Virus record (IMG/VR): IMGVR_UViG_3300027896_000022
Location: 17,954-81,953 of that record
Strand: one strand, 5' to 3'
Length of the DNA: 64,000 nucleotides
DNA from: a virus
Taxonomy: Duplodnaviria; Heunggongvirae; Uroviricota; Caudoviricetes
A program made the position numbers and the translations under genes. This document shows positions 1 through 30,014 of this stretch, one piece after another (within the stretch, counting starts at the first letter, position 1; each line of letters starts with the position of its first letter). The notes under the pieces are model-generated. The model did no database searches, was not told where the DNA came from, and saw only the letters and a list, made by a program, of their open reading frames with translations.

Positions 1-12
1 TTAGCTAACGAA

Positions 13-3000
13 ATGCGGGATAACAATGCTTTAGGCATTAAAGTTGTAGTTGAAATTGATCCTCAAACTTTATCTTCTAAAGCAAGAGGAACTAAGGAAA
101 GTTTTTTTAAAGTCCATGTTACAGATGATTCTTGGGATCCGGCAAATATTAAAAGAACAACTGAATTAATGGTTAAAGGCACTAATTTGCCTAATAATGA
201 AATCAATGTGGCTGCCAATGCAATTCATGACGTTTTAAAAGATAAACCGGAGGTTATAGCTAACTACATAGCAGGCACGCCAAAAGAAAATATAGAAACT
301 GCAAATCCTCCTGGGGCTGTTCTTGAAGAACCTATTGCAACCACTCCTGAAGAGTCAGCAGCATCTTTTGAGGCCTTTATGCATGACAATATTCCATTTA
401 AAAATTCAACTGAGACAGCATTATTGAATAAAGAAATGGAACCGGTTCATATGGCGGCAACAATCAAGGAAACAACTCCAATAATTCGTGAGGCGATTAC
501 AACTAAAAGAGCTATGCCGGCAGAAGAACCTAGAATCAGTGAAGAAACTATTTCATCAGCAATTCCAGTAAAAACAAAAACACCTGTTACTAATTGGAAA
601 AATTTTTCAGTTCAACCCGGAGGAGGAGAAGAAATAAATGCAGGAGCAATGGCACATACAGACGATCCTGTTGTTTTACAATCTTTTACTAGAAAAAATC
701 TTTATGATATTGCCAAAGGAGCTTCTAAAAAAGGTGCTGAAGTAGGTGCGGGATGGAAAACATTCTTAAATAATATAAATAGCAAATTAAAGACTCCAAT
801 TACTGATAAAAATGAATTAAATGATTTAAGATGGTTATATAAAAGAGGTGCCAATTCTTCTTCGCGTCTTGAACTTACTAGTGAAAAAAATTTAATTCCT
901 GGAGCTCCAGAGAATAAAGGCAAAGGAGATGCGGATATTGAAAAATTTAACAAAGATAATAATCTTCCTGCTGATGCTGTCCAAATTATTGGAATTAATA
1001 AACAGCGAACATATGGACCTGACCCTAAATATACAGATAGTAGGAATAAATTTGATGAAGATGTAAAAACATTATCTAAGGTAGGTAAAGATAAATTTTT
1101 ACCAGTAGGGCAGCTTGCTAAAGGTTCTACGCAAGTTATATTTGCCAAATTTTCTCCTGAATATGTAAAAATATTTGATAAAAATCCTGAAAAATATACT
1201 CCAACTGGAGCAAAAATAGTTACTCCTGAAGATAAATTTCTTCAAGTCTTAAAAGTAGGAGCTTTAAATTTGCCCAAAGACATGAACACTGGTGATTTTA
1301 TTAAAAGGTCGTCCTTGATTTTTACCAGAGGGCAACAATATAACGGAATAGATAATAATTCTAAATTTACTTTAAATATTTTAAAATCTCCTACAGTAGG
1401 TGAGGAAGGAAATGTCAATTCAGATAATTTTGAAAATCCAAAAGACCCCAAAGTTCAAGATGCCATTAATGGCTTGACTGAAATGAGCCGAATAGACGGC
1501 AAAATTATTTTAGGAGAAGATTTGTTTGATAAAATTAGAAATGACACCAATTATGATCCTGCCAAATATAAGACCGGTTTAAAAATCACTCTTAATGGTC
1601 AGGGAAACCTAATTGGAAATGAAAATGATTTATATCAAATGATTCATAAAGGAAGTGCCATTAAAGCTGATCCAGCCATTAGAGCTTATATAAAATCTGT
1701 TTACGGCTTTGATCTTCCCAAAGGTGAAGCTGCCAGCTTTGATACAAACGCCAAAGTTGGCCCAAAAGAAGGAAAATTTGAAACTCCTCTTTCTAGTATT
1801 TTTACTCAAGCTGTTTCTCCCAGTGAGGAAGGCCGTGTTACTCCTGATTTTGAAAGAAAGTTGCAAAGTTCAGATGCAGGAGCTACAAATGATATTCTTA
1901 ATATTAATCAAAAACGTTTACAGGTTTTTAAGCAATTGAATGATGATATTGCCGCTACCACCAATAAAAAAGAATTAGAAGATGTCTTAAACAAATATTC
2001 GGATAAATACAATTTAGACAAAGCATCCTTGTTTTACGGCGATCTTGGCGAATCTTTTAATTTGGGAGCTGCCAAAATAAATCTTTCTCATAATCTGGAA
2101 AGAGTTTTAAAGAATATTTTCAATGAAAGTGTTATTAATGACGTTTTACCTGGAAGTGGAAGAGCAACCTTGTCTTTTTCCTTGCCTTTAAAATTGGATG
2201 GACCAAATAATCCAGCCAGAGTTGTAAACAATGAAGAAATTGTCTTAGGAAAGGAATTCATGAAAGCCCATAATATAAAGGAAGGAGATGATGTGATGGT
2301 CTTAAGAAATCCCTCAATAGACATGAATAATATTCTTGTTCTTAAGGCCAGAGATGGTTCAACTTTAGGACATACTAGTTTAGGAACAGAACATACAATA
2401 GTCAGCCCTTTTAATGAAAGAATCATTCTTGGTGGAGATCAAGATGGTGATGATGTTCTTATTACTAAAGTAGGGGAAGGTGGAATTCCAGAAAGTTATG
2501 TCAATGCTGTTAAGACAAGAGGATCTAAAGCAATTCCTTTTTCAGAAGTCACCCCTCGGCCATCTACACCTACAACCATAGCTAATATAACAGATGTTAT
2601 TCATAATTATTTGGTAGGAGATAATCAAACTAGCCATATTTCCATGGTTAATAGGATGATGAATTCTTTACAAGACAATGGATTGACTGTAAAAGTATAT
2701 CCTTCATCTGGAAAAAATAGCCGTTATGAATTAGTAGCCAATGGAAAAGTTGTTGAATCAGGCATAACTTCTGCCAGCAAAGCTGGTTTTGAGGCTACCC
2801 CGCAATTAGATTATAATGTCAGACAATTAAGAACCCAGGCTTTACAAGAAGCGGTAGACTCTAAAAAGTCTAATGATATTGTGGCTCGTTCTAATAATAA
2901 TGATCCTCTTTGGATGCTTAAGCAGGTCTTTAAAAGTAGTGATGGAAAAGAGTTAGATGATTATCAGGCTGTTGCATTACGCAAAGCTTTACAGAATTAT

Positions 3001-4110
3001 CAGGATGCTTATCAAAGCAAATCTTTTGTCGCCAATGCCAGAAATGTTGATGAAATTTTCTCAAAAACAGTCAAGGGCAAAACAGTCGGTCTTGATCCGG
3101 CAATAGCCTTGATAACTAAAATAAAAAAAGCAGGTGCTTCAATAACCCCTTTCCAGGAAAAACTTTTAGCTTTAGCTGATGAAAAAGGCAAAGGTTTTAA
3201 GACCGTTCAAGCTGATATTGTTAAAGCCGATAAAGCTGGAGCAACTGCAGTAAGAGAAAAATTCAAGCAAGAACCAAGTAAAGCCTTAAATACCATTAGA
3301 GGAATAGCTATAAAAGCTAGGCAAGATTATAATTCAACTAAAAATTATGCAAAAAAGAAAGAAGCTGCACAAAGAGTTTCGGATTATTTTGATGCTAATA
3401 GAAAAAAATTTAATAAAACTGATTTAACACAAATTGCACGATGGAATTCAATTTCTGATGAGGCAAATATCGCTCATGGACCTCAGTATAGAACCCCAGT
3501 ATATATCCGCAGATCCAATACTTTAACAAATGCTGACCCGGAAGTTGCCAAAACATATTATGAAGCCTCAGAAAAGGCTATTCCCCCTGCTGAAAAATAT
3601 AGCAATCTAGCTAAACAGACTGCAAAAACAACAACAAAACCGGTAGAAGAGCCTTTAACGACCATGTCTGGAATTCAATTAAAAAAAGAAACCACCCCTG
3701 CAGGTGATTATTGGTTAGAACAGAATGTGGCAAAGTCTGGCGGTAAATGGACGCCAGTAGTAAAAGCTGGCCATACGGTAGAGCATTTAATGCTAAAAGG
3801 CGGTGGCGGTTATGCTGGAAAGGTAAGAATCGATGGTGTTGAATATACTTATCCTGAAGCTGAAGCCAAATTTCTCAATCCTGTTGCCAAATATAATAAT
3901 TTAGCTAAAACCGTGAAGACGACTATGCCAAAATATACAATTGGTGCTACCTTTGATTATGAGGGAAAAAAATGGGAAATAAAGGATTTCCCAGGGCTTA
4001 AACTTGTCACTGTTGCTCAAGTTGATAATCCAAATATAACTCAAGATTTAAGTCGTTCCGCACTTTTATCTGGCGATATTGGAACTAATTTAAAGAATCC
4101 TACAGTTTAA
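13..4110 (+). CDS. Giant protein of at least 1365 aa. The frame is open to the window start, so the N-terminus may lie upstream. It carries a beta-prime-like catalytic-loop motif, so it is a candidate phage-encoded or virion two-barrel RNA polymerase.
   Basis: Long uninterrupted ORF. The segment VLRNPS...HTIV...GGDQDGDD at nt ~2290-2460 resembles bacterial beta-prime LLNRAPTLH...HPLV...NADFDGDQ, including a DxDGD loop. Confidence in the ORF is high; confidence in the product is low. Confidence 0.4.
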   Translation: MRDNNALGIKVVVEIDPQTLSSKARGTKESFFKVHVTDDSWDPANIKRTTELMVKGTNLPNNEINVAANAIHDVLKDKPEVIANYIAGTPKENIETANPPGAVLEEPIATTPEESAASFEAFMHDNIPFKNSTETALLNKEMEPVHMAATIKETTPIIREAITTKRAMPAEEPRISEETISSAIPVKTKTPVTNWKNFSVQPGGGEEINAGAMAHTDDPVVLQSFTRKNLYDIAKGASKKGAEVGAGWKTFLNNINSKLKTPITDKNELNDLRWLYKRGANSSSRLELTSEKNLIPGAPENKGKGDADIEKFNKDNNLPADAVQIIGINKQRTYGPDPKYTDSRNKFDEDVKTLSKVGKDKFLPVGQLAKGSTQVIFAKFSPEYVKIFDKNPEKYTPTGAKIVTPEDKFLQVLKVGALNLPKDMNTGDFIKRSSLIFTRGQQYNGIDNNSKFTLNILKSPTVGEEGNVNSDNFENPKDPKVQDAINGLTEMSRIDGKIILGEDLFDKIRNDTNYDPAKYKTGLKITLNGQGNLIGNENDLYQMIHKGSAIKADPAIRAYIKSVYGFDLPKGEAASFDTNAKVGPKEGKFETPLSSIFTQAVSPSEEGRVTPDFERKLQSSDAGATNDILNINQKRLQVFKQLNDDIAATTNKKELEDVLNKYSDKYNLDKASLFYGDLGESFNLGAAKINLSHNLERVLKNIFNESVINDVLPGSGRATLSFSLPLKLDGPNNPARVVNNEEIVLGKEFMKAHNIKEGDDVMVLRNPSIDMNNILVLKARDGSTLGHTSLGTEHTIVSPFNERIILGGDQDGDDVLITKVGEGGIPESYVNAVKTRGSKAIPFSEVTPRPSTPTTIANITDVIHNYLVGDNQTSHISMVNRMMNSLQDNGLTVKVYPSSGKNSRYELVANGKVVESGITSASKAGFEATPQLDYNVRQLRTQALQEAVDSKKSNDIVARSNNNDPLWMLKQVFKSSDGKELDDYQAVALRKALQNYQDAYQSKSFVANARNVDEIFSKTVKGKTVGLDPAIALITKIKKAGASITPFQEKLLALADEKGKGFKTVQADIVKADKAGATAVREKFKQEPSKALNTIRGIAIKARQDYNSTKNYAKKKEAAQRVSDYFDANRKKFNKTDLTQIARWNSISDEANIAHGPQYRTPVYIRRSNTLTNADPEVAKTYYEASEKAIPPAEKYSNLAKQTAKTTTKPVEEPLTTMSGIQLKKETTPAGDYWLEQNVAKSGGKWTPVVKAGHTVEHLMLKGGGGYAGKVRIDGVEYTYPEAEAKFLNPVAKYNNLAKTVKTTMPKYTIGATFDYEGKKWEIKDFPGLKLVTVAQVDNPNITQDLSRSALLSGDIGTNLKNPTV

Positions 4111-4782: not shown

Positions 4783-5271
4783 TTAATTATTTAAATTCAT
4801 TGTTCCTCGATGCAATCTGGCCATTGTTTCCGGTGATCTTTCATAGTTTCCAACCCGAGGATCGCCTTTTTTAAACCAATATTTTTTTCCTTTTTTTAAA
4901 TTGGTTTTTATCTTTTCCCAAGTAGCTTGATTTAATTCATGTTTAATATCTCTATACCATTCTGGAATATATCCACGCTTGACATCTTTGCCAATATATT
5001 TCTTATATTCCCTGCCTGTCATTTTATGCCGCAAATAAGCATGAGAGCAAATTTGAACATACCAACCGCCACAAATAACACATTGGATTTTCCCAGGCTT
5101 ATATTCAGCTCTTTTTTTTCTGAACCATTCTAAATGTTGTTCGGCAAATTTTTGATTATAGAATTTAGTCCTGCATTTTTGACTGCAATAAGTTCTAAAC
5201 CTTTTTTTGACTATTGGAAGGCCGCAAGTTTTGCATTTATTCCTTAATTCTATTTTCCATTTTTTTTTCAT
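4783..5271 (-). CDS. Zinc-finger protein (C-x2-C...H-x3-H, Ros/MucR-like motif), basic
   Basis: Carries CVICGGWYVQICSHAYLRH and an N-terminal CxxC...CxxC. The same motif is found in ORF 15996-16832. Confidence 0.5.
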   Translation of the reverse strand: MKKKWKIELRNKCKTCGLPIVKKRFRTYCSQKCRTKFYNQKFAEQHLEWFRKKRAEYKPGKIQCVICGGWYVQICSHAYLRHKMTGREYKKYIGKDVKRGYIPEWYRDIKHELNQATWEKIKTNLKKGKKYWFKKGDPRVGNYERSPETMARLHRGTMNLNN

Positions 5272-5750
5272 ATTGAATAAATTAACTTTCCTTGACCATG
5301 CAGAATTTCATGCTGATATATTTGAGCGTCACGGCCAGACAATTTTTTGATTTCTCTGGCACCGATAGTGCCTTCTGGCGTCAAAATACTGCATTCAACT
5401 TCTATCTTATGAAATCTTTGAACTTTAATTGGCGGTCTGTCGGGAAATGACAAGCATCCTTCAATTTTTATTATTGGTACCTTAGTATGTCTAATGATTA
5501 TTGGATTAATAATTATTCCTTTTTCTTGAGTAACAAAAAAATTTAAAGGATTCTTATTGTCAATCTGGCTATGATGGACGGCAAAAGAACCTGGAATTGG
5601 CCCTACCTGCATATAACAGAGGTTATAAAGGATATGTGATTCATTTATCAGGCGTGGAAGATCTTTTTCTGTAACTTCTTTGCTCTTTTTTTTATGAGGC
5701 GGCACAAGATAACTTTTAAAGTCTGTTAAATCTTGTTTTGCTTCTTCCAT
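5268..5750 (-). CDS. def: Peptide deformylase
   Basis: Contains the PDF motif 2 EGCLSFPD and motif 3 QHEILHGQGKL (HExxH). Motif 1 is divergent. Confidence 0.75.
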   Translation of the reverse strand: MEEAKQDLTDFKSYLVPPHKKKSKEVTEKDLPRLINESHILYNLCYMQVGPIPGSFAVHHSQIDNKNPLNFFVTQEKGIIINPIIIRHTKVPIIKIEGCLSFPDRPPIKVQRFHKIEVECSILTPEGTIGAREIKKLSGRDAQIYQHEILHGQGKLIYSI

Positions 5751-5754
5751 ATTT

Positions 5755-7881
5755 TTAAATTATCTTGGAAGTATTTCCTTCCTTGATTATATTAATTTTT
5801 TCCTCAAAACTATCTTTGATGGTCTGAAGATGCGAAATGCAAAGGACTTGGGAAAATTTGTCTTGCAGGGAAAGCATGACTTCATTGAAGCCACTGATAG
5901 TATTTTCATCGAGGCCTAAAAATGTTTCATCAAATATTCTAAAACCAGACTTCTGCAGAGTGGCTAAGGCCTCAGCAATGGCAACTGTAATTTTCAATTT
6001 TTGTCCGCCTGAATAATTGTCTAATGGAAATATTTCACCTTGTTCGTTATAAATATTGATAAACAATCCTTCAGTATTGCCATCACCATCTGCTTTTTCT
6101 TTCTGTGTTTCCAGCCTGATCTTAAAATCAGACATTTTGGAAAGAATTTCATTAATCCGATATTCCAGGCGAGGAATAAGATAGTCGACGATGACAGTCT
6201 TAATGCCTTTTGACCCGAAAGCTTCTTTGACTATTTCCAGACATTCCTTATTAGCCATATTCTTGTCTTTTACCTTTATCAATTCATGCATTTTTACTTT
6301 TATTTCCTTAATTTCTTTTTCTGATTCTTTCGCCATATCTAATTGATGTTTTAAGCTTATATAATCGGTTTTTTCTTTGTCTAAAAGAACATCTAAAGTT
6401 GCCAAATTTTCATATGTTATTTCTGCCATATTTTCTCTAAGATTTTTATTTACGCCCTCTAAAGTTTCCACGTCACCATTCAGCATGGCGATGGATAATT
6501 CAAGATTTTGAATTTCTTCATTAAGATAAATTATTGTTTTTTTCTTTTCTTCATCGGCAAGTTCTTGCTCGGCATAAATAGCCAATACCTTTTCTTCTTC
6601 TTCTAATTTTTTAATTCTGTCTATATCTTCCTGCTTCAAAACCGGCATAGGAATATCCGATAAAGCTTTCATATAGGAAGCATTATCACTTTCCTGCTTG
6701 GTAATTCTTTCCGTAATGTCTTTTATCTGTTCTTCTATAAAGATTGACTTATTCTTCAATTCCTGTTCCAACTTAGGGCAATTCTTTCCTAAATCTTTAC
6801 AGAAGACGTCATTAGAGAGCGTTATGTCCATTAATTGGTCATTTAAACGCTTCAGAACAGCGCTGTAGTCGTTTTGGGGGCTTCTGCCGCCAATTATGGC
6901 CTGACGCTTTAAATTGTTCTCATAATCCTTCTTTTGATCTTCATGAAGTATTTCTAAGGCTAATCTGGCAACCTTTAAATTATTTTTAGCATCTTCAATT
7001 ATTACACCATTTGTATTAGAAATTTTTTCAAGTTTTTCTCTTTTTTCTTTGATGGTTTTCTCAGCTTCAATAATTCTGGTTTTCTTTGACAAAATATCAA
7101 CATTATTAGTTGATATTTGATTTTGATTTATCTTGATATAATCATCAGCCGCCTTGGCTTCGCCAATTCTTTTTTTTATTTTATTCAGACGATCTTCTGA
7201 AGCAGAAAGATTAAGCGTAATCTCTGGAATAAGCTTAATCATTTCGTCAATTTTTTTGATATTTGAATCAAATGAATTTATTTCTAAATCTGCCAAGCGG
7301 ATATTATCAATAGCTTCATTCAGTTTATTTTTAGCACGTTCATAAAGATCGTCATAATTTTCCATATTAGCTATTTCCAGCAATAATTCCTTTCTTCTGG
7401 TGGCAGTCTGTTTGACGAAATTTTCTATATTATCTTGTGGATAAGCCACAGAGTTGATGAATAAGGCATAGGATGACCGTAGAAGGTCTTTTTCGACCCA
7501 TTCTTGAGCATCCCTGAGACCTACATGCTTCATTGGCAGATAAACCTTGCCTTTCTTCTCGCCAATATCCAGAGAGTGTTTCCCGGCCATATTGGTATTT
7601 CTTTCTATCCTATAGGCCTTATCATCATCCAATATTTCCAAAATAACCGTGGCATATTTGGTTCCACGTTTAATCAGGTTTTTATTTTCCACTCTTCCTT
7701 TGCCATACAATGCCCAAATAATGGCTTCAACTATACTGGATTTGCCAGAACCGCTGTCGCCAGATATTAAAAGCTTTTGATTTTCCTTGAAAGAAATTTC
7801 AGTTTCCTTATGGCTGAGAAAGTTTATGATTTTAATCTTTTTTAAAGTCACCATAAATAATATAATCAAGTCTTTTTCCAA
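5755..7881 (-). CDS. sbcC: SbcC/Rad50-like SMC-family ATPase
   Basis: Walker A GDSGSGKSS at the N-terminus, a long coiled-coil middle, the ABC signature SGGQKLK, and Walker B FRIFDE at the C-terminus. Confidence 0.8.
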   Translation of the reverse strand: MEKDLIILFMVTLKKIKIINFLSHKETEISFKENQKLLISGDSGSGKSSIVEAIIWALYGKGRVENKNLIKRGTKYATVILEILDDDKAYRIERNTNMAGKHSLDIGEKKGKVYLPMKHVGLRDAQEWVEKDLLRSSYALFINSVAYPQDNIENFVKQTATRRKELLLEIANMENYDDLYERAKNKLNEAIDNIRLADLEINSFDSNIKKIDEMIKLIPEITLNLSASEDRLNKIKKRIGEAKAADDYIKINQNQISTNNVDILSKKTRIIEAEKTIKEKREKLEKISNTNGVIIEDAKNNLKVARLALEILHEDQKKDYENNLKRQAIIGGRSPQNDYSAVLKRLNDQLMDITLSNDVFCKDLGKNCPKLEQELKNKSIFIEEQIKDITERITKQESDNASYMKALSDIPMPVLKQEDIDRIKKLEEEEKVLAIYAEQELADEEKKKTIIYLNEEIQNLELSIAMLNGDVETLEGVNKNLRENMAEITYENLATLDVLLDKEKTDYISLKHQLDMAKESEKEIKEIKVKMHELIKVKDKNMANKECLEIVKEAFGSKGIKTVIVDYLIPRLEYRINEILSKMSDFKIRLETQKEKADGDGNTEGLFINIYNEQGEIFPLDNYSGGQKLKITVAIAEALATLQKSGFRIFDETFLGLDENTISGFNEVMLSLQDKFSQVLCISHLQTIKDSFEEKINIIKEGNTSKII

Positions 7882-8371: not shown

Positions 8372-9040
8372 TTATTTATTAAGAATCATCTTGTTAGTTT
8401 CATCAACTAAGGTTTTCTGTTTTTCCTCTACAGTTTTATCTTTCTTTATTGCTTTCTTAATTTTTTCAACGATTTGTTTAATCTTTCCCATAGATTTATT
8501 GTTAATTTTATTATTAGATTTATTATTTTCCTGAACTTTCCAGGTTGCCCATCGACAATTTTTTTTATTATAACCTTTATCATTATTAATTCTATCTATT
8601 GTAGTATTTTTTTCTCCATATTTTTGACAATGTTTAAAATAAGCATTCCCCATATCTCGCCAAAAATTTTCAAAATTTTCCCATCTTGGATCATATTTTA
8701 TACCTCTTTTGCCATAATTTTTATATTTTTTATTATTTGAATTAGTGCATCGACTTTTAAGATTACACCAAATATTATAAGGTCTTTTATACCGAAATCC
8801 ATGAGTTTTTCTTGGAATAATTAATCCTTTTGACATTGCTTTATATCTTTCTTTCAATTTACAACCACAGGAGGTTTTACGTCTTATTTTTCTGCATAGA
8901 TTTTCAGAAGGAACTAAAATAATTGAACCACAGATGCATTTACACTTCCAAACCACACTGGATTTTTTTCTAAATTTAGTCTTATGTAAGACAATTAATC
9001 TTCCAATTTTTTTTCCTTTTAAGTCAATTAATGCTCCCAT
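8372..9040 (-). CDS. HNH homing-type endonuclease (HNH_3/AP2-like)
   Basis: Contains YNIWCNLKSRC...NYGKRGIKYDPRW...IDRINNDKGYNKKNCRWAT, a pattern typical of phage HNH endonucleases. Confidence 0.55.
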   Translation of the reverse strand: MGALIDLKGKKIGRLIVLHKTKFRKKSSVVWKCKCICGSIILVPSENLCRKIRRKTSCGCKLKERYKAMSKGLIIPRKTHGFRYKRPYNIWCNLKSRCTNSNNKKYKNYGKRGIKYDPRWENFENFWRDMGNAYFKHCQKYGEKNTTIDRINNDKGYNKKNCRWATWKVQENNKSNNKINNKSMGKIKQIVEKIKKAIKKDKTVEEKQKTLVDETNKMILNK

Positions 9041-9602
9041 GTTGTTTTTTTATTACCGAAACAACCTCTTCTTGTGCTTTTATTAATTTTATTTCTGGAT
9101 TTATCAATGCTTCTCCAATTTTTGCAAGGACAAAAGCATCTGCAGAGTTATTGTTATTAAAAGATATTTTATATCTTTTATATAATTCTAATAAAATAAG
9201 GTCTTTTTGACAGTTTCCTTTTCCAGTAGCAAATTTTTTTAAACCTGTAGGAGTTACAAGGTAGACGGTATAATAATTAAATATTATATCTCTTAACATG
9301 TAATTTAAACCAGAAAGCTGAATTAAAGCTGTAGTATTTCTTGCATTCATAGCAACAGATTCCATAACTACTATTGTTGGATGATATTTTTCTAAAAAGA
9401 ATTTAATCTCATTGACAATATCTTTTATTCTTGTCAACTCTGCTGCTGGTGTATCACCTTCTTTTTTTGTCTTAATCAAATGAGAAAATTCTATTTTTCC
9501 ATTTCTAAGTCCGACCATTCCTGTTTCAGTTAATGAAGGATCAATCCCAATAGACAATCCAATATAATTATTTTTTATTATTTTTTTTGCTTTTTCTGAC
9601 AT
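9024..9602 (-). CDS. ruvC: RuvC-like Holliday junction resolvase
   Basis: N-terminal IGLSIGIDPSLTETGM matches the RuvC catalytic start (GIDPG..TG). Confidence 0.55.
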   Translation of the reverse strand: MSEKAKKIIKNNYIGLSIGIDPSLTETGMVGLRNGKIEFSHLIKTKKEGDTPAAELTRIKDIVNEIKFFLEKYHPTIVVMESVAMNARNTTALIQLSGLNYMLRDIIFNYYTVYLVTPTGLKKFATGKGNCQKDLILLELYKRYKISFNNNNSADAFVLAKIGEALINPEIKLIKAQEEVVSVIKKQHGSIN

Positions 9603-10054: not shown

Positions 10055-11056
10055 TTATTTTATTAAGTCATATCCAGCCTGAAGTTTGGCTAAATCAATC
10101 TTTTTTTCCTTGGAATAAATTGCCATTAGGTTGCCTATTTCCAGATTCAAATCGTCATCAGAAAATTTAATTATTTTCCTTTCCGTTTTGTAGTCTTCTA
10201 TCAGAATAGAGCCATCGTAATTGGCTAATTCCTTTTTAAGGGAGGTTAAGTCATTTTCAGTAGGTTTTTTTGTTAAAATCAATTTAATTATAGAGTTTTT
10301 AGGGAATCCCTTAAAAGTGACAGGATCTTCTACTTTAATAATGCTTCTTCCTGGCAAAATACATTCTATAATTTTTCCATCATCCATAATATAGACATAT
10401 CCCGGCCCTTCATTTATCTCTTGAGCAAAAATACTTCCTGCATAAAGTATATTACTTTTTGTATCGCAATAGGCCGTATGTATATGGCCGCAAAAGATAT
10501 TCTCATACATCTTGGTTATCTTTGCCCTTGGCAGGACAATTTCATTCAGGTCGTCAGTTCTGATTCCTTTAATATTATGACCTGAAATAGCATGATGTAT
10601 AAACAAATTTTTGCCTTTAGGCAGCATTTTTAGAAGCTTTTCTGAGGCTTCTTCATGCGTACCGCATTCCAATTCACCCTTGTAAAAATAAGGGCAGAAA
10701 ACATCACCATCTATTTCAACTATCTCGTTAGTAATAATATGCCATCTTTTATTTTTAACTTCTTTCATGAAATCAATGGCACTTTTACCATCACCAACTT
10801 TTTCATGATTACCAGCCAATATATAAATATCCTGTTTAAATTTTTCAATAAACTGAACAAACTCTCTTATGACTTCAGACGGATTATTACGGCCATTTAG
10901 TTGATCGCCAAGAAAAATAACCTTATCGCAGCCTTTACTTGCAGCAAAAATAAAATTTAAAACTTCTTCCTTTTCTTTCTTTCTGCCATCGGCAACAAAA
11001 TCGGCATAACCCATTTTTTCTTTAAGATGTAAATCACTAACTATTAAATATTTCAT
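10055..11056 (-). CDS. sbcD: SbcD/Mre11-like calcineurin-type nuclease
   Basis: Carries the phosphoesterase motifs IVSDLHL, GDQLNGRN and GNHE. Confidence 0.8.
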   Translation of the reverse strand: MKYLIVSDLHLKEKMGYADFVADGRKKEKEEVLNFIFAASKGCDKVIFLGDQLNGRNNPSEVIREFVQFIEKFKQDIYILAGNHEKVGDGKSAIDFMKEVKNKRWHIITNEIVEIDGDVFCPYFYKGELECGTHEEASEKLLKMLPKGKNLFIHHAISGHNIKGIRTDDLNEIVLPRAKITKMYENIFCGHIHTAYCDTKSNILYAGSIFAQEINEGPGYVYIMDDGKIIECILPGRSIIKVEDPVTFKGFPKNSIIKLILTKKPTENDLTSLKKELANYDGSILIEDYKTERKIIKFSDDDLNLEIGNLMAIYSKEKKIDLAKLQAGYDLIK

Positions 11057-12247: not shown

Positions 12248-12254
12248 AATTCAT

Positions 12255-12283
12255 ATTATACACCCGTGTAAAATATTTGTCAA
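12255..12283 (-). promoter_or_regulatory. Sigma70-type promoter: TTGACA, a 17-nt spacer, then TATAAT
   Basis: The minus strand reads cTTGACAaatattttacacgggtgTATAATatg. Confidence 0.6.
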
Positions 12284-14019
12284 GAGGGTAGGGTGGATTT
12301 ACCTTCCTTGACAATTCTTCTCTTTTCTTTCAATTCGATAGATTTAATAATACTGCTTGCATAACTTTTAAAACCTTCTCTGGGTATTTCCGCACCGTCA
12401 ATTAACTGATCAAAAAGCAATTGTTTCTTGCCTAATAATTTAAACATATATTCATCCACTGTCTTCTTAGAATAAAGCTGATAAATGGTTATATGCTCAG
12501 AGGTAGAACCGATACGGTGGATTCTATCAATTGCTTGAGAATGGTCTGCTGGAGTCCAAGAATAATCCAGAAAGACAACATTAGTGGCAGCTGTCAGGTT
12601 AATGCCGACACCAGCACTTTTAATTCCGCCAAAAAAAATCTTTAATTTTTCTTTGGATTGAAATTCATTTACTATATTATTTCTTTCTTCAGCGTCAATC
12701 TTCCCTGTCACTAAGACAGAAATATCCTTAAAATATTTATGCAACTGCTCTAAAGGTTCATTATAACAGCTAAAGACAACTACTTTTTCGCCATTCTCAA
12801 TGATATTTTGAATAATTTCTTTGCTTTGTTCTATCTTACCCAAGCTGCTTAATTGCCTTAAAGCACCTAATTTTACTAACTTTTCAGCTTGCATTGATCG
12901 AGCTGCTTCTTTTTCTGTCTTCTTTTTAATATTAATCAAAAACCGGCCAAATTCTTCTTCCGCCATCTTGTATTTTTCAGCTATCACTGGATCAAGCTCT
13001 AATGGATGATAGATGAATCTTTTCTCAGGAAGATCAGGCAGAATTTCTTTTTTTGATCGTCTGATAAAATACGGACTGATACGTTCCTGCAATTCTGTAA
13101 TATTAGTTGAACCTCGATCGTCCCAGCCAAATCTTCCCATATGGCCGTTGCAATATCTTCGGCTATAGGCGTAATAATCAAACCAGTTTTTAGGATCCAA
13201 GGTATTCAATGGATTAAACAATTCTATCGGGCGGGAAAGAAATGGAGTTCCGCTTAACATCAAAATTTTAGGAATATGTGCCACCAATTTTTTTGTCGCC
13301 CTGCTTCTGAAAGCTGATTTATTTTTAATATAATGAACCTCGTCCAAAATGCATGCTTCCCAAGAAATGCTACTTAAAACCTTAAAGAATTTTTTTAGTA
13401 TATCATAATTGATTACGAAAATCTGATGTTTATTTATATTCTCTATAACAGTAAGCTCTTTCTCATCGCTATCAATCACCATAACTTTTAAATCTGTCCA
13501 TTTTTCTACTTCAGCTTTCCAGTTATATTTGACAACAGCCGGACAAATAACCAATGTTTTTTTTATATCAGAATGAGTAATATAAGCCAAGGCTTGAACT
13601 GTTTTGCCCGCGCCCATTGGGTCGCTGTTCATGGCCCTGCCATTGCTATTTATAAAAAATTCTACACCTACCTTTTGATAAGGAAGAAGTTCCCCCTTAA
13701 TGCCTTTAATTTTAATATTTGATTCTTTTGTTTTCTTTAAACGATCGGCATTTGCTTTGGCTAAAATAGCTTCTTTTGTCAAGTATCGAGCCAGTTCATA
13801 TTCCATTTTTATTTCTTCATCTATTTCTATTTCTGGATAGCGATCTTTCAATTCTACAGCAAAGTCAATGTCGGTAAATCGCCAAGCACCGTTTAAAAAA
13901 GAAAAACGCTTAAAACCATATTTATCGCTTAGGTATTTGCAATATTCAACCATTTCATAGTCAAACTTAAAAGACAATGAATAGCTATATCCAGTTGTAT
14001 TATTTCGTTCTATTTTCAT
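12280..14019 (-). CDS. SNF2-family (SWI2/Rad54-like) helicase
   Basis: Walker A DPMGAGKT, DEAH-box-like DEVHYIKN, and C-terminal helicase motifs. Confidence 0.8.
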   Translation of the reverse strand: MKIERNNTTGYSYSLSFKFDYEMVEYCKYLSDKYGFKRFSFLNGAWRFTDIDFAVELKDRYPEIEIDEEIKMEYELARYLTKEAILAKANADRLKKTKESNIKIKGIKGELLPYQKVGVEFFINSNGRAMNSDPMGAGKTVQALAYITHSDIKKTLVICPAVVKYNWKAEVEKWTDLKVMVIDSDEKELTVIENINKHQIFVINYDILKKFFKVLSSISWEACILDEVHYIKNKSAFRSRATKKLVAHIPKILMLSGTPFLSRPIELFNPLNTLDPKNWFDYYAYSRRYCNGHMGRFGWDDRGSTNITELQERISPYFIRRSKKEILPDLPEKRFIYHPLELDPVIAEKYKMAEEEFGRFLINIKKKTEKEAARSMQAEKLVKLGALRQLSSLGKIEQSKEIIQNIIENGEKVVVFSCYNEPLEQLHKYFKDISVLVTGKIDAEERNNIVNEFQSKEKLKIFFGGIKSAGVGINLTAATNVVFLDYSWTPADHSQAIDRIHRIGSTSEHITIYQLYSKKTVDEYMFKLLGKKQLLFDQLIDGAEIPREGFKSYASSIIKSIELKEKRRIVKEGKSTLPS

Positions 14020-14242: not shown

Positions 14243-14271
14243 TTTTTTATGATTAATTTTTTAACTCTTTA

Positions 14272-14300
14272 ATTATACACCTATATAAAATAGTTGTCAA
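14272..14300 (-). promoter_or_regulatory. Sigma70-type promoter: TTGACA, a 17-nt spacer, then TATAAT
   Basis: Minus strand reads cTTGACAactattttatataggtgTATAATt, upstream of the 14242 start. Confidence 0.55.
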
Positions 14301-14556
14301 GTAAGATATTTTCTGATGGGGGACGGCAAGTCGTCAGCTTTGCTCGTGGCCAGAAAAAACTTCAAAGAAAATTCCAACCACGGCGGACCGCTTGGCCGAA
14401 GGGGGGATTCATTTCCCCACTTGCCGCACCCTCATCAAAAAAACAAAAACTAATTGGCTTAATAATCTATCGTGCGTTCAATTAACTTAGCCGGAAATAG
14501 CCCGAAAGGAACCTAATACCTTTGCACACGTTCCGGAACCAATTGGAGAGTTTTAG

Positions 14557-14628
14557 ACCAGGTAACAGAAATCGGACCTGCTTCATGAGATTGGAAATCT
14601 CAGGTAATAACCATTATACGATACCTGG
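14557..14628 (-). tRNA. tRNA-Gly (anticodon TCC). The cloverleaf was folded by hand. CCA is not encoded.
   Basis: Reverse complement reads ccaggta tc gtat aatggtta ttac c tgaga tttccaa tctca tgaa gcagg tccgatt tctgt tacctgg t. It has a 7-bp perfect acceptor stem, U8, A14, GG in the D-loop, U33 and A37. The T-loop is atypical. Confidence 0.45.
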
Positions 14629-17566: not shown

Positions 17567-17705
17567 ATTTTTACTTTTTAATTATTCCGCCATTTTCCCA
17601 TTCCATATAATTAGATGGGGGCATAGTGATTTTTTTAACTTTTACTGGTTTTTTAATCGGCTTTTTCTTTTTAACCATAAAATTAATTTTTATTAGCTTT
17701 CCTAT

Positions 17706-17734
17706 ATTATACACCCGTGTAAAATATTTGTCAA
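17706..17734 (-). promoter_or_regulatory. Sigma70-type promoter. The 30-mer is identical to the one at 12255-12283.
   Basis: Minus strand reads cTTGACAaatattttacacgggtgTATAATatagg. Confidence 0.6.
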
Positions 17735-17825
17735 GAGAGGGATAGAATTAATGCCATTTTGTCAAGTTGTAGGATTTGTGCTATAATGTAAAAAAATATT
17801 ATAATAAAAATAACATTATCTAATT

Positions 17826-19863: not shown

Positions 19864-21600
19864 ATGGACATTGACCTGGTTCTTCGGCAAGAAGAATTAA
19901 AATTAGCTGCCAAAGATTATATTTCCAAGGGTCTTAGCATAATTCCGGTTGGAAAAGATAAAAAACCACTAATCCTGTGGAAGGAATTTTGCGCTAGGAT
20001 CGCGAATCCTGAAGAAGTTGATGAATGGTTCAAAAAATACCCTTTCGCGCAGCTAGGCATGGTTACGGGGCAAATTTCGGGCATTACGGTGGTGGATGTG
20101 GAAGCTGAAGGCGGCGAAAAAGAATGGTTAAAACTTCCGCAGGAATGTCCGATTGTAAAAACAGGCTCTGGGGGCCGTCATTATTGGTATCTTTACGACA
20201 AGACTGCCAAGACTGGGGCAAGACTTGAAGGTGAATTGGAATTTTGCGATTGTCGCAACGATGGCGGTTATGTGATTTTACCGCCCAGCGTCTCTGAAAA
20301 AGGAAGCTATGAATGGATACAAAAAGTTCCGCCTTGCCGCTTTCCAAAAGAATTGTTTAAAGCGAGAGAGAGCCAGGGGGGCTATGTTGCCTCGCAAGTT
20401 CAGAATAAAGGTTTTGCCATGAAGTTGATGGCTGATTTATATCTTGGGGCTGATGTTGGAAACAGAAATGACGCCATGGTTAAATATATCGGATATATTT
20501 TGACGCAGATTCATCCGGCAGATTGGGAAGAAAAAGCATGGCCGCTAGCGATTGAAGCCAATAATAAAAACACTCCGCCATTGGCAATGCATGAGCTACG
20601 CCGTTCTTATGATTCTATTCGTCAGGCGGAAAAAACAAAAAATCCAGATAGGTTTTCTTCTGGCATTCCAGAGAAATGGGAAACAGGGGAAGAAAACGAT
20701 GAGGTAAAATTGTTATCTGAAGTAGCGGAAGCGCAGACAATGGATTTGTCTCATCCTTTTCCTAGTGGAATAGAAATTTTTGATAAAGAAATTCGAGGGG
20801 GTTTTTTCCCAGGCGACTTAATTGTCATTGCCGCCGGTTCTGGCCATGGCAAAACTTCTTTTAGCCAGTATCTTTCTTATAATTTTTTAAAATATAATAA
20901 ACAAAAGGTTTTGTTTTTTTCATACGAGGTTTTATCTTTCTTTGTCTGGGATAAGTTTAAGCGAATGGGGCTGCAGAAGGAAGATCTGATTTATATGCCA
21001 TTTAGGCATGTCACCGGAAATATTGAGTGGATAGAGAAAAAAATCAAAGAGGCAAAAGAAAAGTATGGTGTAAATTTTGTCGTAATTGATCATTTGGGAT
21101 TTTTAGAGCCATCTAAAAAGATGGCTGGGCAGAAGAATTTTTATGAAATAGAAAGATTCCTTGTTCGCCAGGTCAAAAAAATAGCCGTTAGGGAAGAGAT
21201 AATGATTGTTATGCCAGTTCATGTCAGAAAGAAGCCCAGCGGCGATAGGCGGCCAAATTCTGACCTTGAGATGGAAGATATTGCGGGGTCTGCGGGCATT
21301 TATCAGGAATCAGACATTGTTTTCCTGCTTCAACGTGAAGAGGCGACAAAGAATAACTCAGATGATCTTTATACCAATTATACTAGAATTTCTTTAGGCA
21401 AAAACAGAAGAGGAAGCAAGAATCCCAGGGGATGGTTTACTTTGCTGAATGATGTTTTTGTCCATGATCCATATAAAGGCAATCTAATTTCTTCTAAACC
21501 TCCTTCGTCATTTTATACGGAAAAAGGGTTAGAAGAAGAATTGGAACGAGAGCATAAACAGCAAGAAGCTCAGGCCGCCATGTTTGGCGATAAAGATTAA
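19864..21600 (+). CDS. Primase-polymerase N-terminal domain fused to an SF4/DnaB-RepA-like helicase
   Basis: The N-terminal SIIPVGKDKKPLILWKEF resembles the bifunctional prim-pol domain. The C-terminal half has P-loop AAGSGHGKTS and Walker B-like VVIDHLGF. Confidence 0.6.
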   Translation: MDIDLVLRQEELKLAAKDYISKGLSIIPVGKDKKPLILWKEFCARIANPEEVDEWFKKYPFAQLGMVTGQISGITVVDVEAEGGEKEWLKLPQECPIVKTGSGGRHYWYLYDKTAKTGARLEGELEFCDCRNDGGYVILPPSVSEKGSYEWIQKVPPCRFPKELFKARESQGGYVASQVQNKGFAMKLMADLYLGADVGNRNDAMVKYIGYILTQIHPADWEEKAWPLAIEANNKNTPPLAMHELRRSYDSIRQAEKTKNPDRFSSGIPEKWETGEENDEVKLLSEVAEAQTMDLSHPFPSGIEIFDKEIRGGFFPGDLIVIAAGSGHGKTSFSQYLSYNFLKYNKQKVLFFSYEVLSFFVWDKFKRMGLQKEDLIYMPFRHVTGNIEWIEKKIKEAKEKYGVNFVVIDHLGFLEPSKKMAGQKNFYEIERFLVRQVKKIAVREEIMIVMPVHVRKKPSGDRRPNSDLEMEDIAGSAGIYQESDIVFLLQREEATKNNSDDLYTNYTRISLGKNRRGSKNPRGWFTLLNDVFVHDPYKGNLISSKPPSSFYTEKGLEEELEREHKQQEAQAAMFGDKD

Positions 21601-21902: not shown

Positions 21903-22058
21903 ATGCCAGCAGGGAAAAGCACAATTTTTAAGAAATCAGTTGCCGTCAGCCTTGAAGATTTGGATTTTCTTAAAAGCATTAAGGGCGATAAGTCAGTGGC
22001 AGAAAAAAATCGGGAAATAATTAATTATTATAAATTAAATTATAAGCATGTTAACTGA
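21903..22058 (+). CDS. Small ORF of 51 aa with an RHH/CopG-like N-terminus. It is not in the ORF track.
   Basis: Translates as MPAGKSTIFKKSVAVSLEDLDFLKSI... It lies between the promoter and recA and overlaps the recA start. Confidence 0.3.
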   Translation: MPAGKSTIFKKSVAVSLEDLDFLKSIKGDKSVAEKNREIINYYKLNYKHVN

Positions 22059-23091
22059 AAAGGAAAAAGCTAAATCGATTGAAGACGCCTTGGCTGTTTT
22101 GCATAAGAAATACGGCAAAGAATCAGTGGTTGAATTAGATAAAAGCATGGACATTGAGGTTGAAGTTATTCCGACAGGCTGCTTTGCCTTGGATGAAGCT
22201 TTTGGTTGCGGCGGATTGCCGCGGGGAAGGATAATTGAATTGTTTGGTCAAGAAAGTTCTGGAAAGAGTACTATGGCAACTTTTTTAATGGCACAGATAC
22301 AGAAGCAAGGGGGCAAGGTTGCCCTTATAGACGCTGAATTTGCGTTTGATGCCAATTATGCGAGGAATATCGGTCTGGACACTACAAAGTTGATTCTGGC
22401 GCAACCTGGAAGCTTAGAAGAGGCAATGGATATTCTTAATGGTTTGGTTAAAAGCAATGGTTTGGATATAGTCGTGATTGACTCGGTCGCCGCCCTTGTT
22501 CCTAAATCAGAAATTGAAGGTGAGGAAATGTTAAAAGATTCAATGGCTGTTCAAGCTCGGCTGATGGGAAAAGCTTTAAGGATTTTAACGGGGGCGATTG
22601 CTCGAAGCAGAACTGTGGTTATATTCATTAATCAAATTCGTGAAAAGGTAGGCGTTTTTTTCGGCAATAAGGAAACGACGCCAGGAGGCAAGGCTTTAAA
22701 GTTTTTCAGTTCTGTCCGCATTGACGTCAAGAAAGGGGAAAGGATTGAAGGCAAAGACAAGGAATTGATCGGGCATGTTCTTAAGGTAACGATGGTTAAG
22801 AATAAGGTTGGTTATCCTTGGAAGCAGGCTACTTTTGAATTATACTTTGGTTCTGGGATAGACATGCAAGGCGATGCTCTTGATTTTGGTGAAAAAATAA
22901 AAATTATTACTAAAACTGGTAATTCATATTCTCTTAATGGTGGTTTATTGGGGGGAAGCAGAGATAAGGCAAAACTTTTTCTTAAGGTTAATCCGGATGT
23001 TTTTAATAAACTGGTTGCAGAAATAAAAAAAACTATTAAAATTAAGGGAAAACAATCTCCTGTTGAGGAGGTAAGAAACCCTGAAAAATAA
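22048..23091 (+). CDS. recA: RecA-family recombinase
   Basis: Contains GRIIELFGQESSGKST (RecA P-loop region), VVIDSVAAL, and the L2-like region. Confidence 0.85.
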   Translation: MLTEKEKAKSIEDALAVLHKKYGKESVVELDKSMDIEVEVIPTGCFALDEAFGCGGLPRGRIIELFGQESSGKSTMATFLMAQIQKQGGKVALIDAEFAFDANYARNIGLDTTKLILAQPGSLEEAMDILNGLVKSNGLDIVVIDSVAALVPKSEIEGEEMLKDSMAVQARLMGKALRILTGAIARSRTVVIFINQIREKVGVFFGNKETTPGGKALKFFSSVRIDVKKGERIEGKDKELIGHVLKVTMVKNKVGYPWKQATFELYFGSGIDMQGDALDFGEKIKIITKTGNSYSLNGGLLGGSRDKAKLFLKVNPDVFNKLVAEIKKTIKIKGKQSPVEEVRNPEK

Positions 23092-24242: not shown

Positions 24243-24767
24243 ATGATTGATGAAAATTTTTTAAAGAAGATGTTTAATCTTCCGCAAGAAACCCATCCGG
24301 AAAAACTTTGGGTTTTGAAATATGTTCCTGCTGAAGCAAAAATTATTTACGACCTTGGTTGCGGATCAAAAAAGACTGTTGAAAATGCTATTGGGGTTGA
24401 TATTAAGCCAGGGTCGGACAAAGTGGCTAGTATGGATTTTTTGCCTTTTATTGAAAATCAGACGGTTGACATTGTTGTTTTTCGGCATTCTTTGGAACAC
24501 ATGCTTGATCCGGTGAAGACCCTGAAAGAATGGTGGCGAATTTTAAAGAATGATGGGAAGATAATTATTATTTTGCCTGATTCTACCGTTTTGAATACGA
24601 TGAATATAGCGATTAGCAGAGGACAGCATTTGCATGCTTATACGCCAGATAGTTTTAAATCTTTAATTTCTTTATTTCCAGAATTCTATTTGGAAAAAAT
24701 AGAAGTAGTGATAGACGAATGGAGTTTTGAAGCAGTCTTACAAAAAAAATATGACAAAAAAAACTGA
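24243..24767 (+). CDS. Class I SAM-dependent methyltransferase
   Basis: Motif I DLGCGSKK and motif post-II VVFRHSLEHMLDP. Confidence 0.6.
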   Translation: MIDENFLKKMFNLPQETHPEKLWVLKYVPAEAKIIYDLGCGSKKTVENAIGVDIKPGSDKVASMDFLPFIENQTVDIVVFRHSLEHMLDPVKTLKEWWRILKNDGKIIIILPDSTVLNTMNIAISRGQHLHAYTPDSFKSLISLFPEFYLEKIEVVIDEWSFEAVLQKKYDKKN

Positions 24768-27693: not shown

Positions 27694-28297
27694 AGAAATA
27701 TTTACCGCTTATTATTTGGAAAATCTTTGGGGTGATCCAATGTCTGTTTCTGGCCCGAGTTCGACTGTTGAGCATACGAGAGAGACTAGAAATATTATTA
27801 GTGTTTTAATTTGTTCATTAAAGATTAAGAAAATATTGGATGCGCCTTGCGGGGATTATAATTGGTTTAGGTTTGTGCATAAAAATAGTTCTGTTTCTTA
27901 TCTTGGGGCGGATATAGTTGAGCCGCTGATTGAAAAAAATAATATTTGGTATGGTGATTATAATACCAAATTTATCAAGCTGGATATTCTTGAAGACGTT
28001 TTGCCAAAGGCAGATTTGCTGATTTGCCGCGAATGTTTGCAGCATTTGCCGATGAAAGATTGTTTTAAGTTCTTTGAGAATTTTAAGAAAAGCGAGATAA
28101 AATATCTTTTAATAACTTCTTGGGACAGTGAAAAGAATGAAGATACGGTTGTAGGGGGGTTTAGAAGATTGGATTTATTAAAAAAACCTTTTGACTTTGA
28201 AGCACCGCTGGGGTCTTTTAAAGAATGGTCATGGCCGGGTCAGTCTGAGAAACGGCTGATTCTTTGGGAAAGAAAAAAAATGTTTAAAAAAATATGA
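27647..28297 (+). CDS. Class I SAM-dependent methyltransferase
   Basis: Contains LDAPCGDYNW...LLICRECLQHLP. It overlaps the upstream gene, which suggests coupling. Confidence 0.5.
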   Translation: MRNFMPFGRQNMPSNKEIFTAYYLENLWGDPMSVSGPSSTVEHTRETRNIISVLICSLKIKKILDAPCGDYNWFRFVHKNSSVSYLGADIVEPLIEKNNIWYGDYNTKFIKLDILEDVLPKADLLICRECLQHLPMKDCFKFFENFKKSEIKYLLITSWDSEKNEDTVVGGFRRLDLLKKPFDFEAPLGSFKEWSWPGQSEKRLILWERKKMFKKI

Positions 28298-29028
28298 GCA
28301 TTCCTAAAAATATTATGACAGTGTGGCTGACTTTTGATAATGGGCCTTTGCCGCCGCTGATTAAAAGATGCATTGAAAGCCAGAAGCTTCCGGGTTATAC
28401 ACAGAAAGTGATTACCTTGGAGAATTGCTATAAAGGTTCAAAGTATGTTAATAAGGCCTTAGAGAAAGCCAAGGCTTTACATGATGCCGGGAAGCCCATT
28501 ACAGGGCCTTGGGATAATCCTTTGACCTGGATAGTCAAGGCTTCTGATTGGCTTCGCTGTTATCATATCTGCGAGGAAGGCGGGATTTACCTTGATGCGG
28601 ATATGGAAGTTATTCCAGGGAAGAACTTTGATGATTTGCTGGATTGCCGGTTCTTTACGGAAATAGAAGCTTTCGGTATGCCGGCTAATTCTGCCTTTGG
28701 ATCGGAAGCGGGCCATCCTTTTTTAAAAGAATATCTTCCTAGAATTGAAGAGAATTTTTGTGGGGACGGGATAATGGTATTTGAACCGGGGGCCAGAGCG
28801 TTTGCCGATTTGATGTGGATTTATGACAAGGCCAAAAATGGGATAAAGATTTTTGATACTTCCATGTTTTTTCCTTATACTCATGGCAAAGAAATAATTA
28901 AAGTCACGCCGCAGACCAAGGTTTATCATCATTATGTCAATTCCTGGTGTGATGACCGGTGCAAGAAAAAGCTGGGGACAGAGTATGAAACCAAGGATTT
29001 TACGGAAATATTTAAAGGTAAAATATGA
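28294..29028 (+). CDS. Glycosyltransferase with a DXD sugar-binding region (GT32/Och1-like)
   Basis: Contains GGIYLDADMEVI. It has a 4-nt overlap with the upstream gene. Confidence 0.5.
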   Translation: MSIPKNIMTVWLTFDNGPLPPLIKRCIESQKLPGYTQKVITLENCYKGSKYVNKALEKAKALHDAGKPITGPWDNPLTWIVKASDWLRCYHICEEGGIYLDADMEVIPGKNFDDLLDCRFFTEIEAFGMPANSAFGSEAGHPFLKEYLPRIEENFCGDGIMVFEPGARAFADLMWIYDKAKNGIKIFDTSMFFPYTHGKEIIKVTPQTKVYHHYVNSWCDDRCKKKLGTEYETKDFTEIFKGKI

Positions 29029-29187
29029 TTAAATATTGTTTCTTAACAACTATCATCGTTGAGGTGGGCGTAAAAAATGCCTATGCGGGATAGAATTAAT
29101 CAATCTATTCTTAAGATTACATCGGTCGAGAGTCCGTCTGTGCCGAGGTTGATAACCATAAAGGCGAGCAGTGAAACATGATGGTAG

Positions 29188-30007: not shown

Positions 30008-30014
30008 TTTCTAT

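Follow-up and report, generated by a model that had tools for sequence, protein, structure and literature searches.

A family of giant phage proteins with a predicted single-chain, two-barrel RNA polymerase core

The window analysed here is the whole stretch of 64,000 nucleotides (nt) taken from a virus of the Caudoviricetes (IMG/VR record IMGVR_UViG_3300027896_000022, positions 17,954 to 81,953). It opens within a giant open reading frame (ORF): frame 1 of the + strand is without a stop from window base 1 until the stop codon at 4108-4110. An earlier reading made from the sequence only had suspected that this ORF reaches upstream of the window, and it does. The full protein (P0001, 2330 amino acids (aa)) is the sole database protein identical to the ORF and is carried by contigs of up to 88 kilobases (kb). 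Its first 961 codons precede the window, which carries the C-terminal 1369 codons plus the stop. The sequence-only reading had also taken the ORF for a candidate single-chain RNA polymerase (RNAP). Fold, conservation and motif all support this reading.

The giant ORF and its predicted polymerase core

The features of the giant ORF and the other genes assigned in the window are listed in Table 1. Residues of P0001 are numbered as window aa + 961, and window aa as model residue + 178. Domain boundaries are approximate and come from DSSP run on the AlphaFold2 model.

Table 1. Features of the window, sorted by position within the giant ORF and then along the remaining DNA
Feature	Window position (nt)	Strand	Basis or remark
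Giant ORF, C-terminal 1369 codons + stop	1..4110	+	Frame open; identical to P0001
Two-barrel RNAP core, window aa 179-1220 (P0001 1140-2181)	535..3660	+	Family conservation, AlphaFold2, fold matches
Short helix ending K435-R436 (P0001 K1396, R1397)	1288..1308	+	Conservation, model; candidate duplex-binding or auxiliary helix
First barrel, beta-like (DPBB-B / DPBB1)	1495..1809	+	Conservation; beta-rich model residues 323-425
D499-G500, first barrel	1495-1500	+	
K528, first barrel	1582-1584	+	
K550, first barrel	1648-1650	+	
Motif F-x-x-N-x-K-x-G, first barrel	1738-1761	+	
Helical connector joining the barrels, ~115 aa (model residues 426-540)	1810..2154	+	Model
Second barrel, beta-prime-like (DPBB-A / DPBB2)	2155..2472	+	Encloses 2290-2460, singled out by the sequence-only reading
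R769-N-P771, second barrel	2305-2313	+	
Mg-binding loop D813-Q-D815-G-D817, second barrel	2437-2451	+	
33-residue helix after the catalytic barrel (model 682-714), carrying G873 and R885	2578..2676	+	Candidate bridge helix, assigned by position
Helix and strongly conserved loop EAVDSKKS (D953)	2812..2880	+	Conservation, model; candidate trigger-loop region
C-terminal mobile module, ~60-80 aa, within the last ~150 residues	~3643..3885	+	
SbcC-like ATPase	5755-7881		
RuvC	9024-9602		
SbcD-like phosphoesterase	10055-11056		
SNF2 helicase	12280-14019		
PrimPol-DnaB fusion	19864-21600		
RecA	22048-23091		
988-aa fusion, three methyltransferase domains + GT2	24727-27693		
393-aa methyltransferase plus GT-D protein	30385-31566		
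1062-aa ORF heading the structural block	41536-44724		Without Pfam match, PHROG match or RNAP signature
Terminase, T4-like	46187-47614		
Portal, SU10/P22-type	49653-51854		
Major capsid protein	55380-56390		
Collagen-repeat protein, 1169 aa	59473-62982		Pfam Collagen, E 2e-107; probably a tail fibre

Translation of nt 2290-2460 (+ strand, frame 1) gives DVMVLRNPSIDMNNILVLKARDGSTLGHTSLGTEHTIVSPFNERIILGGDQDGDDVL. As proposed from the letters, it contains a DxDGD catalytic loop. This loop, DQDGD, is the sole DxDGD in the six-frame translation of the window, and 0.023 such motifs are expected by chance per 2330 aa of P0001's own composition. The pattern [RK]xPx{20,100}DxDxD has been used as a filter signature for two-barrel RNAPs (Chaban et al. 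2024; PMC10770324, Supplementary Data 4), 23 families of which were published with alignments (Supplementary Data 3). It matches the window once, at nt 2305-2451 (RNP, 41 residues, DQDGD).

To collect relatives of P0001, 1.84 billion cluster representatives were searched exhaustively with HMMER. Among the 77 matches, about 35 are giant proteins (2000-2800 aa) that are homologous over P0001 ~1140-2176, with 24-47% identity; taken over all giant homologues, identity spans 18-47%. The catalytic loop is invariant across the family: DxD[G/A]D is retained at the same site in all 35 motif-bearing relatives inspected. Closer relatives have GDQDGD or GDQDAD; distant ones have the canonical form (GDYDGD, GDFDGD or GDHDGD). 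A regular-expression scan found six further giants with the layout R/K-x-P ... LG ... GDxDGD.

Residue conservation was counted in an alignment of 30 sequences (P0001 numbering). R1397, G1461, K1489, K1511 and K1546, then R1730, P1732, D1774, D1776, D1778, G1834 and D1914, are conserved in 30 of 30; K1396, D1460, N1544, G1548 and R1846 in 29. The catalytic positions (three Asp, a further Asp, two Lys, an Arg and R-x-P) are invariant or nearly so down to ~18-20% identity. The by-eye alignment to bacterial beta-prime made in the sequence-only reading stands at the R-x-P, which corresponds to beta-prime NRAPTLH, and at the DxDGD. Its pairing of HTIV with HPLV does not stand: the His is not conserved, and it is L-G (LGxEH) that is conserved there.

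The core (window 535-3660, 1042 aa) was modelled with AlphaFold2 without templates, from a 34-sequence alignment (A1). The mean predicted local distance difference test score is 90.1 and the predicted template modelling (TM) score 0.86. The model has a double-psi beta-barrel (DPBB) at the DxDGD. A second, beta-like DPBB with conserved Lys and Arg had been named as a feature to look for; it is present (D1460, K1489, K1511), with R1397 upstream. A beta insertion stands between the 33-residue helix and the helix with the EAVDSKKS loop.

All 50 matches listed by Foldseek against the PDB are two-barrel RNAPs, none being a glycosidase or a tail protein; neither of the two outcomes that the sequence-only reading had named as refuting it was thus obtained. 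The best listed match is the crAss-like phage protein phi14:2 gp66 (6VR4, E 4.9e-11). It is followed by QDE-1 entries (E 7e-11 to 8e-9, TM ~0.4-0.47), maize RDR2 (E 1.8e-8) and P23-45 gp96 (E 8.5e-5). Bacterial beta-prime and eukaryotic Rpb1-type chains are found at E ~1e-3 with TM ~0.1. The gp66 structure, released in 2020, is probably later than the training data of alphafold2_ptm; in that case, the top match is not a memorised one.

In structural alignment, gp66 again comes first, and beta-prime and Rpb1 chains are again matched. The scores are 17.3 for gp66 (764 residues, 4.3 A, 10% identity), 14.0 for P74-26 gp62, a gp64-type non-virion RNAP (514 residues), 13.9 for RDR2 (551 residues), 11.3 for QDE-1 (637 residues), 11.0 for gp96 (360 residues) and 7.7 for PolD DP2 (267 residues). 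Isolated or designed DPBB domains score 12-13, with 1.7-2.0 A over 86 residues. In BFVD, the top matches are segments of two unnamed giant viral proteins, A0A516LSI3 and A0A516LUR1 (E 6e-23 and 1.7e-20; TM 0.55-0.59; 10-12% identity), and those next in rank are from uncultured crAss-like phages.

Relationship to known two-barrel polymerases

By fold, P0001 is closest to crAss gp66; by sequence, it is outside the gp66 family. P0001 and phi14:2 gp66 (PDB 6VR4; Drobysheva et al.) are both single chains longer than 2000 aa in which a helical connector joins two DPBBs, this connector being ~140 aa in gp66 and QDE-1 (bioRxiv 10.1101/2020.03.07.982082). Both are encoded by the final gene of the structural block in a podovirus-type genome. 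The two proteins have no detectable sequence homology: identity is that of the structural alignment, and neither phmmer nor hmmsearch against PDB sequences returned 6VR4. The loop is DFDID in gp66 and DQDGD in P0001 (D[QYFHTL..]D[GA]D in the family), so that the DFDxD of the gp66 family is absent from P0001. Unlike gp66, P0001 has an HNH motif conserved at its N-terminus, as well as mobile modules at its C-terminus. The phage itself falls outside Crassvirales at the tblastn and Pfam level: its capsid protein is non-crAss, its portal SU10/P22-like and its terminase T4-like.

P23-45 gp96 (PDB 8H2M/8H2N) and gp64 / P74-26 gp62 (PDB 8F5M) are phage two-barrel RNAPs that share the [RK]xPx{20,100}DxDxD signature. 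Like P0001, for which packaging is proposed, gp96 has its DxDxD motif within a giant virion-type protein. It is also the sole PDB-sequence hint at the catalytic loop, a weak one (E 0.07). It differs from P0001 in being a siphovirus protein (as are gp64 and gp62) that is fused to a tape measure and is without a C-terminal clamp region. In P0001, which belongs to a podovirus-type genome, small modules come after HNH motif, spacer and RNAP. In bacterial RNAP, beta-prime and beta are separate subunits, whereas both barrels are fused in one chain in P0001; the likeness beyond the loop is structural only.

The active site can be compared with that of QDE-1. In QDE-1, D1007/1009/1011 of DPBB2 and D709 of DPBB1 bind two cations, R671 lies in a helix directly before DPBB1, and two Lys of DPBB1, K743 and K767, keep the NTP (nucleoside triphosphate) and the 3' end of the RNA in place (PMC9508822). 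R1397, D1460, K1489, K1511 and D1774/1776/1778 of P0001 are ordered like R671, D709, K743, K767 and D1007/1009/1011. The spacings R-D, D-K, K-K and K-DxDxD are 38, 34, 24 and 240 residues in QDE-1 and 63, 29, 22 and 263 in the P0001 family. R436 (R1397 of P0001), which ends the short helix before the first barrel, could accordingly be the equivalent of R671. QDE-1 and RDR2 (PDB 2J7N, 7Y7P, 7W82) resemble P0001 in the DxDGD loop and in the order of the catalytic residues; the similarity is structural only, and P0001 does not match Pfam PF05183. Unlike these two enzymes, P0001 is encoded in a phage structural operon, has a presumed DNA template and embeds its core in a protein of 2330 aa.

The sequence-only reading had likened the ORF to YonO-like or crAss-like virion RNAPs that are injected with the DNA. 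The likeness to crAss gp66 holds by fold. The likeness to YonO is less apt, as YonO is a prophage non-virion enzyme that is not known to be injected. No chain named YonO is among the listed PDB matches, and no direct comparison with YonO was made.

Sequence databases other than metagenomes are silent on the family. With the window protein as query, Pfam gave no family even at E up to 1, PF05183 (RNA-dependent RNA polymerase, RdRP) included; PHROGs gave no match, nor did phmmer against PDB sequences. In four distant members, PHROGs recognised the N-terminal HNH only and nothing in the RNAP core, and tblastn searches of GenBank phages with two distant members were empty. A word-indexed protein search returned P0001 itself only, and nothing when queried with 19 aligned sequences of the catalytic region; the family members are therefore known from the exhaustive HMMER search only. 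A locus search of IMG/VR with the single protein found nothing, and one with a closer 13-sequence alignment found 2 viral and 5 metagenome loci. The same 13-sequence alignment found no locus in 185,579 GTDB genomes, which gives neither a prophage copy nor a clue to the host. The polymerase family is thus absent from the Pfam, PHROG, PDB-sequence and GenBank-phage resources searched, metagenomes being its sole source here, and is found only in non-Crassvirales, podovirus-type uncultured contigs of ~50-100 kb.

That a giant phage virion protein can conceal a two-barrel RNAP is already known from crAss gp66 and P23-45 gp96. Besides its absence from these resources and its restriction to the contigs just named, the present family differs in lacking a detectable sequence relationship to either of them, in its conserved HNH fusion and in its DxD[G/A]D loop.

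Proposed role and alternatives

In the 48.6-kb contig L001, the giant gene closes a + strand block whose genes are only a few bases apart. In order, the block encodes an SU10-type adaptor, proteins of 610, 547, 57 and 823 aa, an M23 peptidase, proteins of 861 and 111 aa, and lastly the 2330-aa protein. A strand switch to replication genes follows. Two relatives from IMG/VR (L004 and L005) have the same layout, one of them with a 1262-aa neighbour bearing peptidoglycan-binding domains. The giant gene is thus at the end of the structural block in all three genomes examined, beside M23 or peptidoglycan-binding proteins. The gene of phi14:2 gp66, a proteomically confirmed virion protein, likewise closes a block of terminase, portal, capsid and tail genes. 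A gene for a GroEL-type chaperonin lies close to the giant gene in L005 (14366-15997), as does g105 in phi14:2 (L002); it may relate to the folding of giant virion proteins.

P0001 is probably an active two-barrel RNAP that is, most likely, delivered with the virion. Its motif, conservation, fold and gene position are shown by the analysis; we infer its catalytic activity, DNA template, packaging, ejection and early-gene role. The core (window nt ~535-3660) would be a single-chain, two-barrel, DNA-dependent RNAP of the crAss-gp66 / QDE-1 structural clade, with its active site between two DPBBs of one chain that face each other. In the second barrel, D813, D815 and D817 would hold the catalytic Mg2+ alongside the R-x-P strand. 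The Asp and the two invariant Lys of the first barrel would serve the second metal, the RNA 3' end and the NTP phosphates, and the long helix behind the catalytic barrel could act as bridge helix. Since the giant gene ends the late structural block, the protein would be made late and packaged in the capsid, a role that its gene position suggests by the reasoning applied to N4 and crAss phages. If synthesised together with the late proteins, a polymerase would be of use in the next cell only, hence the proposed packaging and ejection. It would be ejected along with the DNA into the next host and transcribe early phage genes there without the host polymerase. Host RNAP would later read the consensus sigma70 promoters of the replication module.

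These promoters correspond to a 34-nt repeat found three times (12253-12286, 14270-14303 and 17704-17737), two copies being identical. Its reverse complement is CTCTTGACAAATATTTTACACGGGTGTATAATAT, i.e. CTCTTGACA-N17-TATAATAT, a perfect sigma70 promoter (TTGACA-N17-TATAAT). The copies are upstream of - strand genes of the replication region, among them the SNF2 helicase gene. The replication module is probably transcribed by host RNAP, in a host that probably uses classical sigma70 promoters.

A second repeated element could be a start signal of another kind. CTACTAnTTTTT(T)G is found four times in a cluster on the - strand at 39.6-40.6 kb of the window (starts 40533, 40257, 39995 and 39676). 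Each copy precedes a small - strand ORF by ~50-70 nt, and a hairpin follows the copy; two copies stand directly after strong terminator hairpins (40294-40267 and 40031-40000). With up to 1 mismatch, the element has 10 matches in the whole window, against 3.8 +/- 1.8 expected. The cluster looks like a series of single-gene units and may be an early region with phage-specific promoters that are read by the phage enzyme.

Several points weigh against an active, virion-delivered RNAP. Gln is the middle residue of the triad loop of P0001, where an aromatic or bulky residue is usual. Catalysis and packaging are read from sequence, model and gene position, and the residue equivalences with QDE-1 from order and broadly similar spacing. 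The family is present in no cultured phage (tblastn of the window protein against 50,697 GenBank phage records). Comparison of family profiles with gp66 by hhalign is not significant (E 0.098 and 0.48); its best segment pairs gp66 926-1000 with the invariant KR helix, near the expected start of the first barrel. The family profile against Escherichia coli beta-prime is not significant either (hhalign E 0.06, 13 columns), the alignment falling exactly at the catalytic loop, beta-prime 456-AYNADFDGDQMAV-468. As similarity to beta-prime extends over ~13 residues and is not significant alone, the proof of RNAP identity is structural. The replication module has perfect sigma70 promoters, which means that the phage uses host RNAP in part and leaves the need for an injected polymerase unproven. 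Finally, of the remaining ~24 kb of the genome, ~10 kb upstream is covered by L001 and ~11 kb was left out.

Four other explanations were weighed. The first keeps the active two-barrel RNAP and drops virion delivery: the enzyme would be made in the course of infection and serve one class of phage genes within the same cell, like SPbeta YonO or P23-45 gp64. This is unlikely. Ejected proteins typically have such a length (2330 aa), the position at the end of the structural block in three genomes matches that of the virion protein gp66, and an RNAP produced solely with the late genes would find little remaining to transcribe in that cell.

Somewhat less likely still is a two-barrel enzyme with another chemistry, i.e. 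an RNA-dependent RNA polymerase, a primase-like enzyme or a PolD-like DNA polymerase compensating for an unrecognised one. Among the window ORFs scanned, which include those of the replication and modification modules (4400-33000), none was recognised as a DNA polymerase. However, the DNA-dependent gp66 is the best and longest structural match and the score of PolD is much lower; the gene belongs to the structural and not to the replication block, and the phage already has a PrimPol-DnaB fusion for priming. The same scan of window ORFs found no second RNAP signature and no RNAP Pfam match.

It is improbable that P0001 is a structural or ejection protein in which the two-barrel fold survives as a relic without catalysis. 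The Gln in place of the usual aromatic residue would fit a relic, and gp66 itself was crystallised in a self-inhibited state (bioRxiv 10.1101/2020.03.07.982082); the near-invariance of the catalytic positions among relatives this distant is unexpected for one. The last explanation, an unrelated giant tail or ejection protein in which DxDGD arose by chance, is effectively refuted: although RNAP sequence matches are all non-significant and LGHTSLGTEHTIV (window 2329-2412) gave a marginal Clp N-domain repeat match (E 0.02, 28 residues), that match is itself taken as chance, since Clp_N is all-helical and the segment is modelled as strands and loops of the barrel, the motif is rare by expectation and invariant in the family, and the top fold matches are all RNAPs.

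Injected RNAPs let phages begin their programme without the host enzyme. To our knowledge, two-barrel injected RNAPs have been characterised only in crAss-like phages, phiKZ-like jumbo phages (multisubunit enzymes) and P23-45. If P0001 is indeed a virion-delivered RNAP, it adds a further sequence-unrelated family in another podovirus lineage, and the strategy is commoner than annotation indicates, because Pfam, PHROGs and GenBank-phage searches all miss this family. The eukaryotic RNA interference polymerases have been proposed to descend from the phage clade of gp66 and gp96. The family would provide a well-modelled new branch for reconstructing the origins of single-chain two-barrel polymerases and of these eukaryotic RdRPs, and its compact core of ~1000 aa could be used for biochemistry. 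A motif noticed by eye, together with structure prediction, can annotate giant "hypothetical" virion proteins. The family is useful for the study of phage transcription and RNAP evolution and is conceptually unsurprising after the work of 2021-2024.

Fused modules and other genes of the phage

An intact HNH motif, DHIIPLWVGGADDMSNKEILDNYTH, is found at P0001 ~215-245, upstream of the window. The pattern DH..PLW.GG.D...N...L....H is present in P0001 and several relatives and belongs to the majority consensus of the full-length alignment; most full-length family members bear the motif at their N-terminus. The family profile matches the HNH domains of Cas8f-HNH and ZRANB3 (E 6e-4 to 6e-3), and two relatives match PHROG HNH families. 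By motif, the N-terminal part of P0001 is a putative HNH (beta-beta-alpha-Me) endonuclease. A hydropathy scan of P0001 showed a Gly/Ala-rich N-terminal region without a classical transmembrane segment.

The C-terminal module has the consensus FWLEQN..K.S.WA.LA..GH....Y.G..LIDGE.YT..EA..KFL and no Pfam or PDB-sequence relative. It is also found as ~30 stand-alone proteins (69-136 aa) and elsewhere within other giants. Four proteins encoded outside the window (P0028, P0030, P0042 and P0044; 1450-1740 aa) have the HNH motif and the C-terminal module without DxD[GA]D. The scaffold formed by these two elements may thus exist with or without a polymerase core; alternatively, the four proteins may be very divergent or partial.

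Tentatively, and with less than even probability, the fusion of an intact HNH nuclease to an injected RNAP would couple DNA cutting to the first round of transcription, and the family would be a third independent branch of the phage clade beside gp66 and gp96. In that case, cutting may shut off the host genome or may process the entering DNA to make start sites for the polymerase. A conserved HNH-RNAP fusion would be a testable new architecture.

The remaining genes of the window are those of a phage. The capsid protein is 25-30% identical (tblastn) to those of Roseobacter CRP-810, Caulobacter Kuura and Pseudomonas 119X/PaMx41-type podoviruses. Just after its gene, a 216-nt direct repeat with 75% identity (56482-56697 and 57366-57581) links neighbouring ORFs of 244 and 246 aa, which look like paralogous, possibly head-decoration, genes. 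Collagen triple-helix repeats make up most of the 1169-aa protein, and its DNA repeats with a period of 9 nt. Genes for methyltransferases and glycosyltransferases follow one another at 24243-31566 and may be a module for the modification of DNA or of surface glycans. Peptide deformylase, tRNA-Gly (anticodon TCC) and a phiEco32-type COOH-NH2 ligase are encoded within 5268-5750, 14556-14628 and 35869-38657, respectively; a weak glutamine amidotransferase-like match, below the Pfam cut-off, adjoins the ligase.

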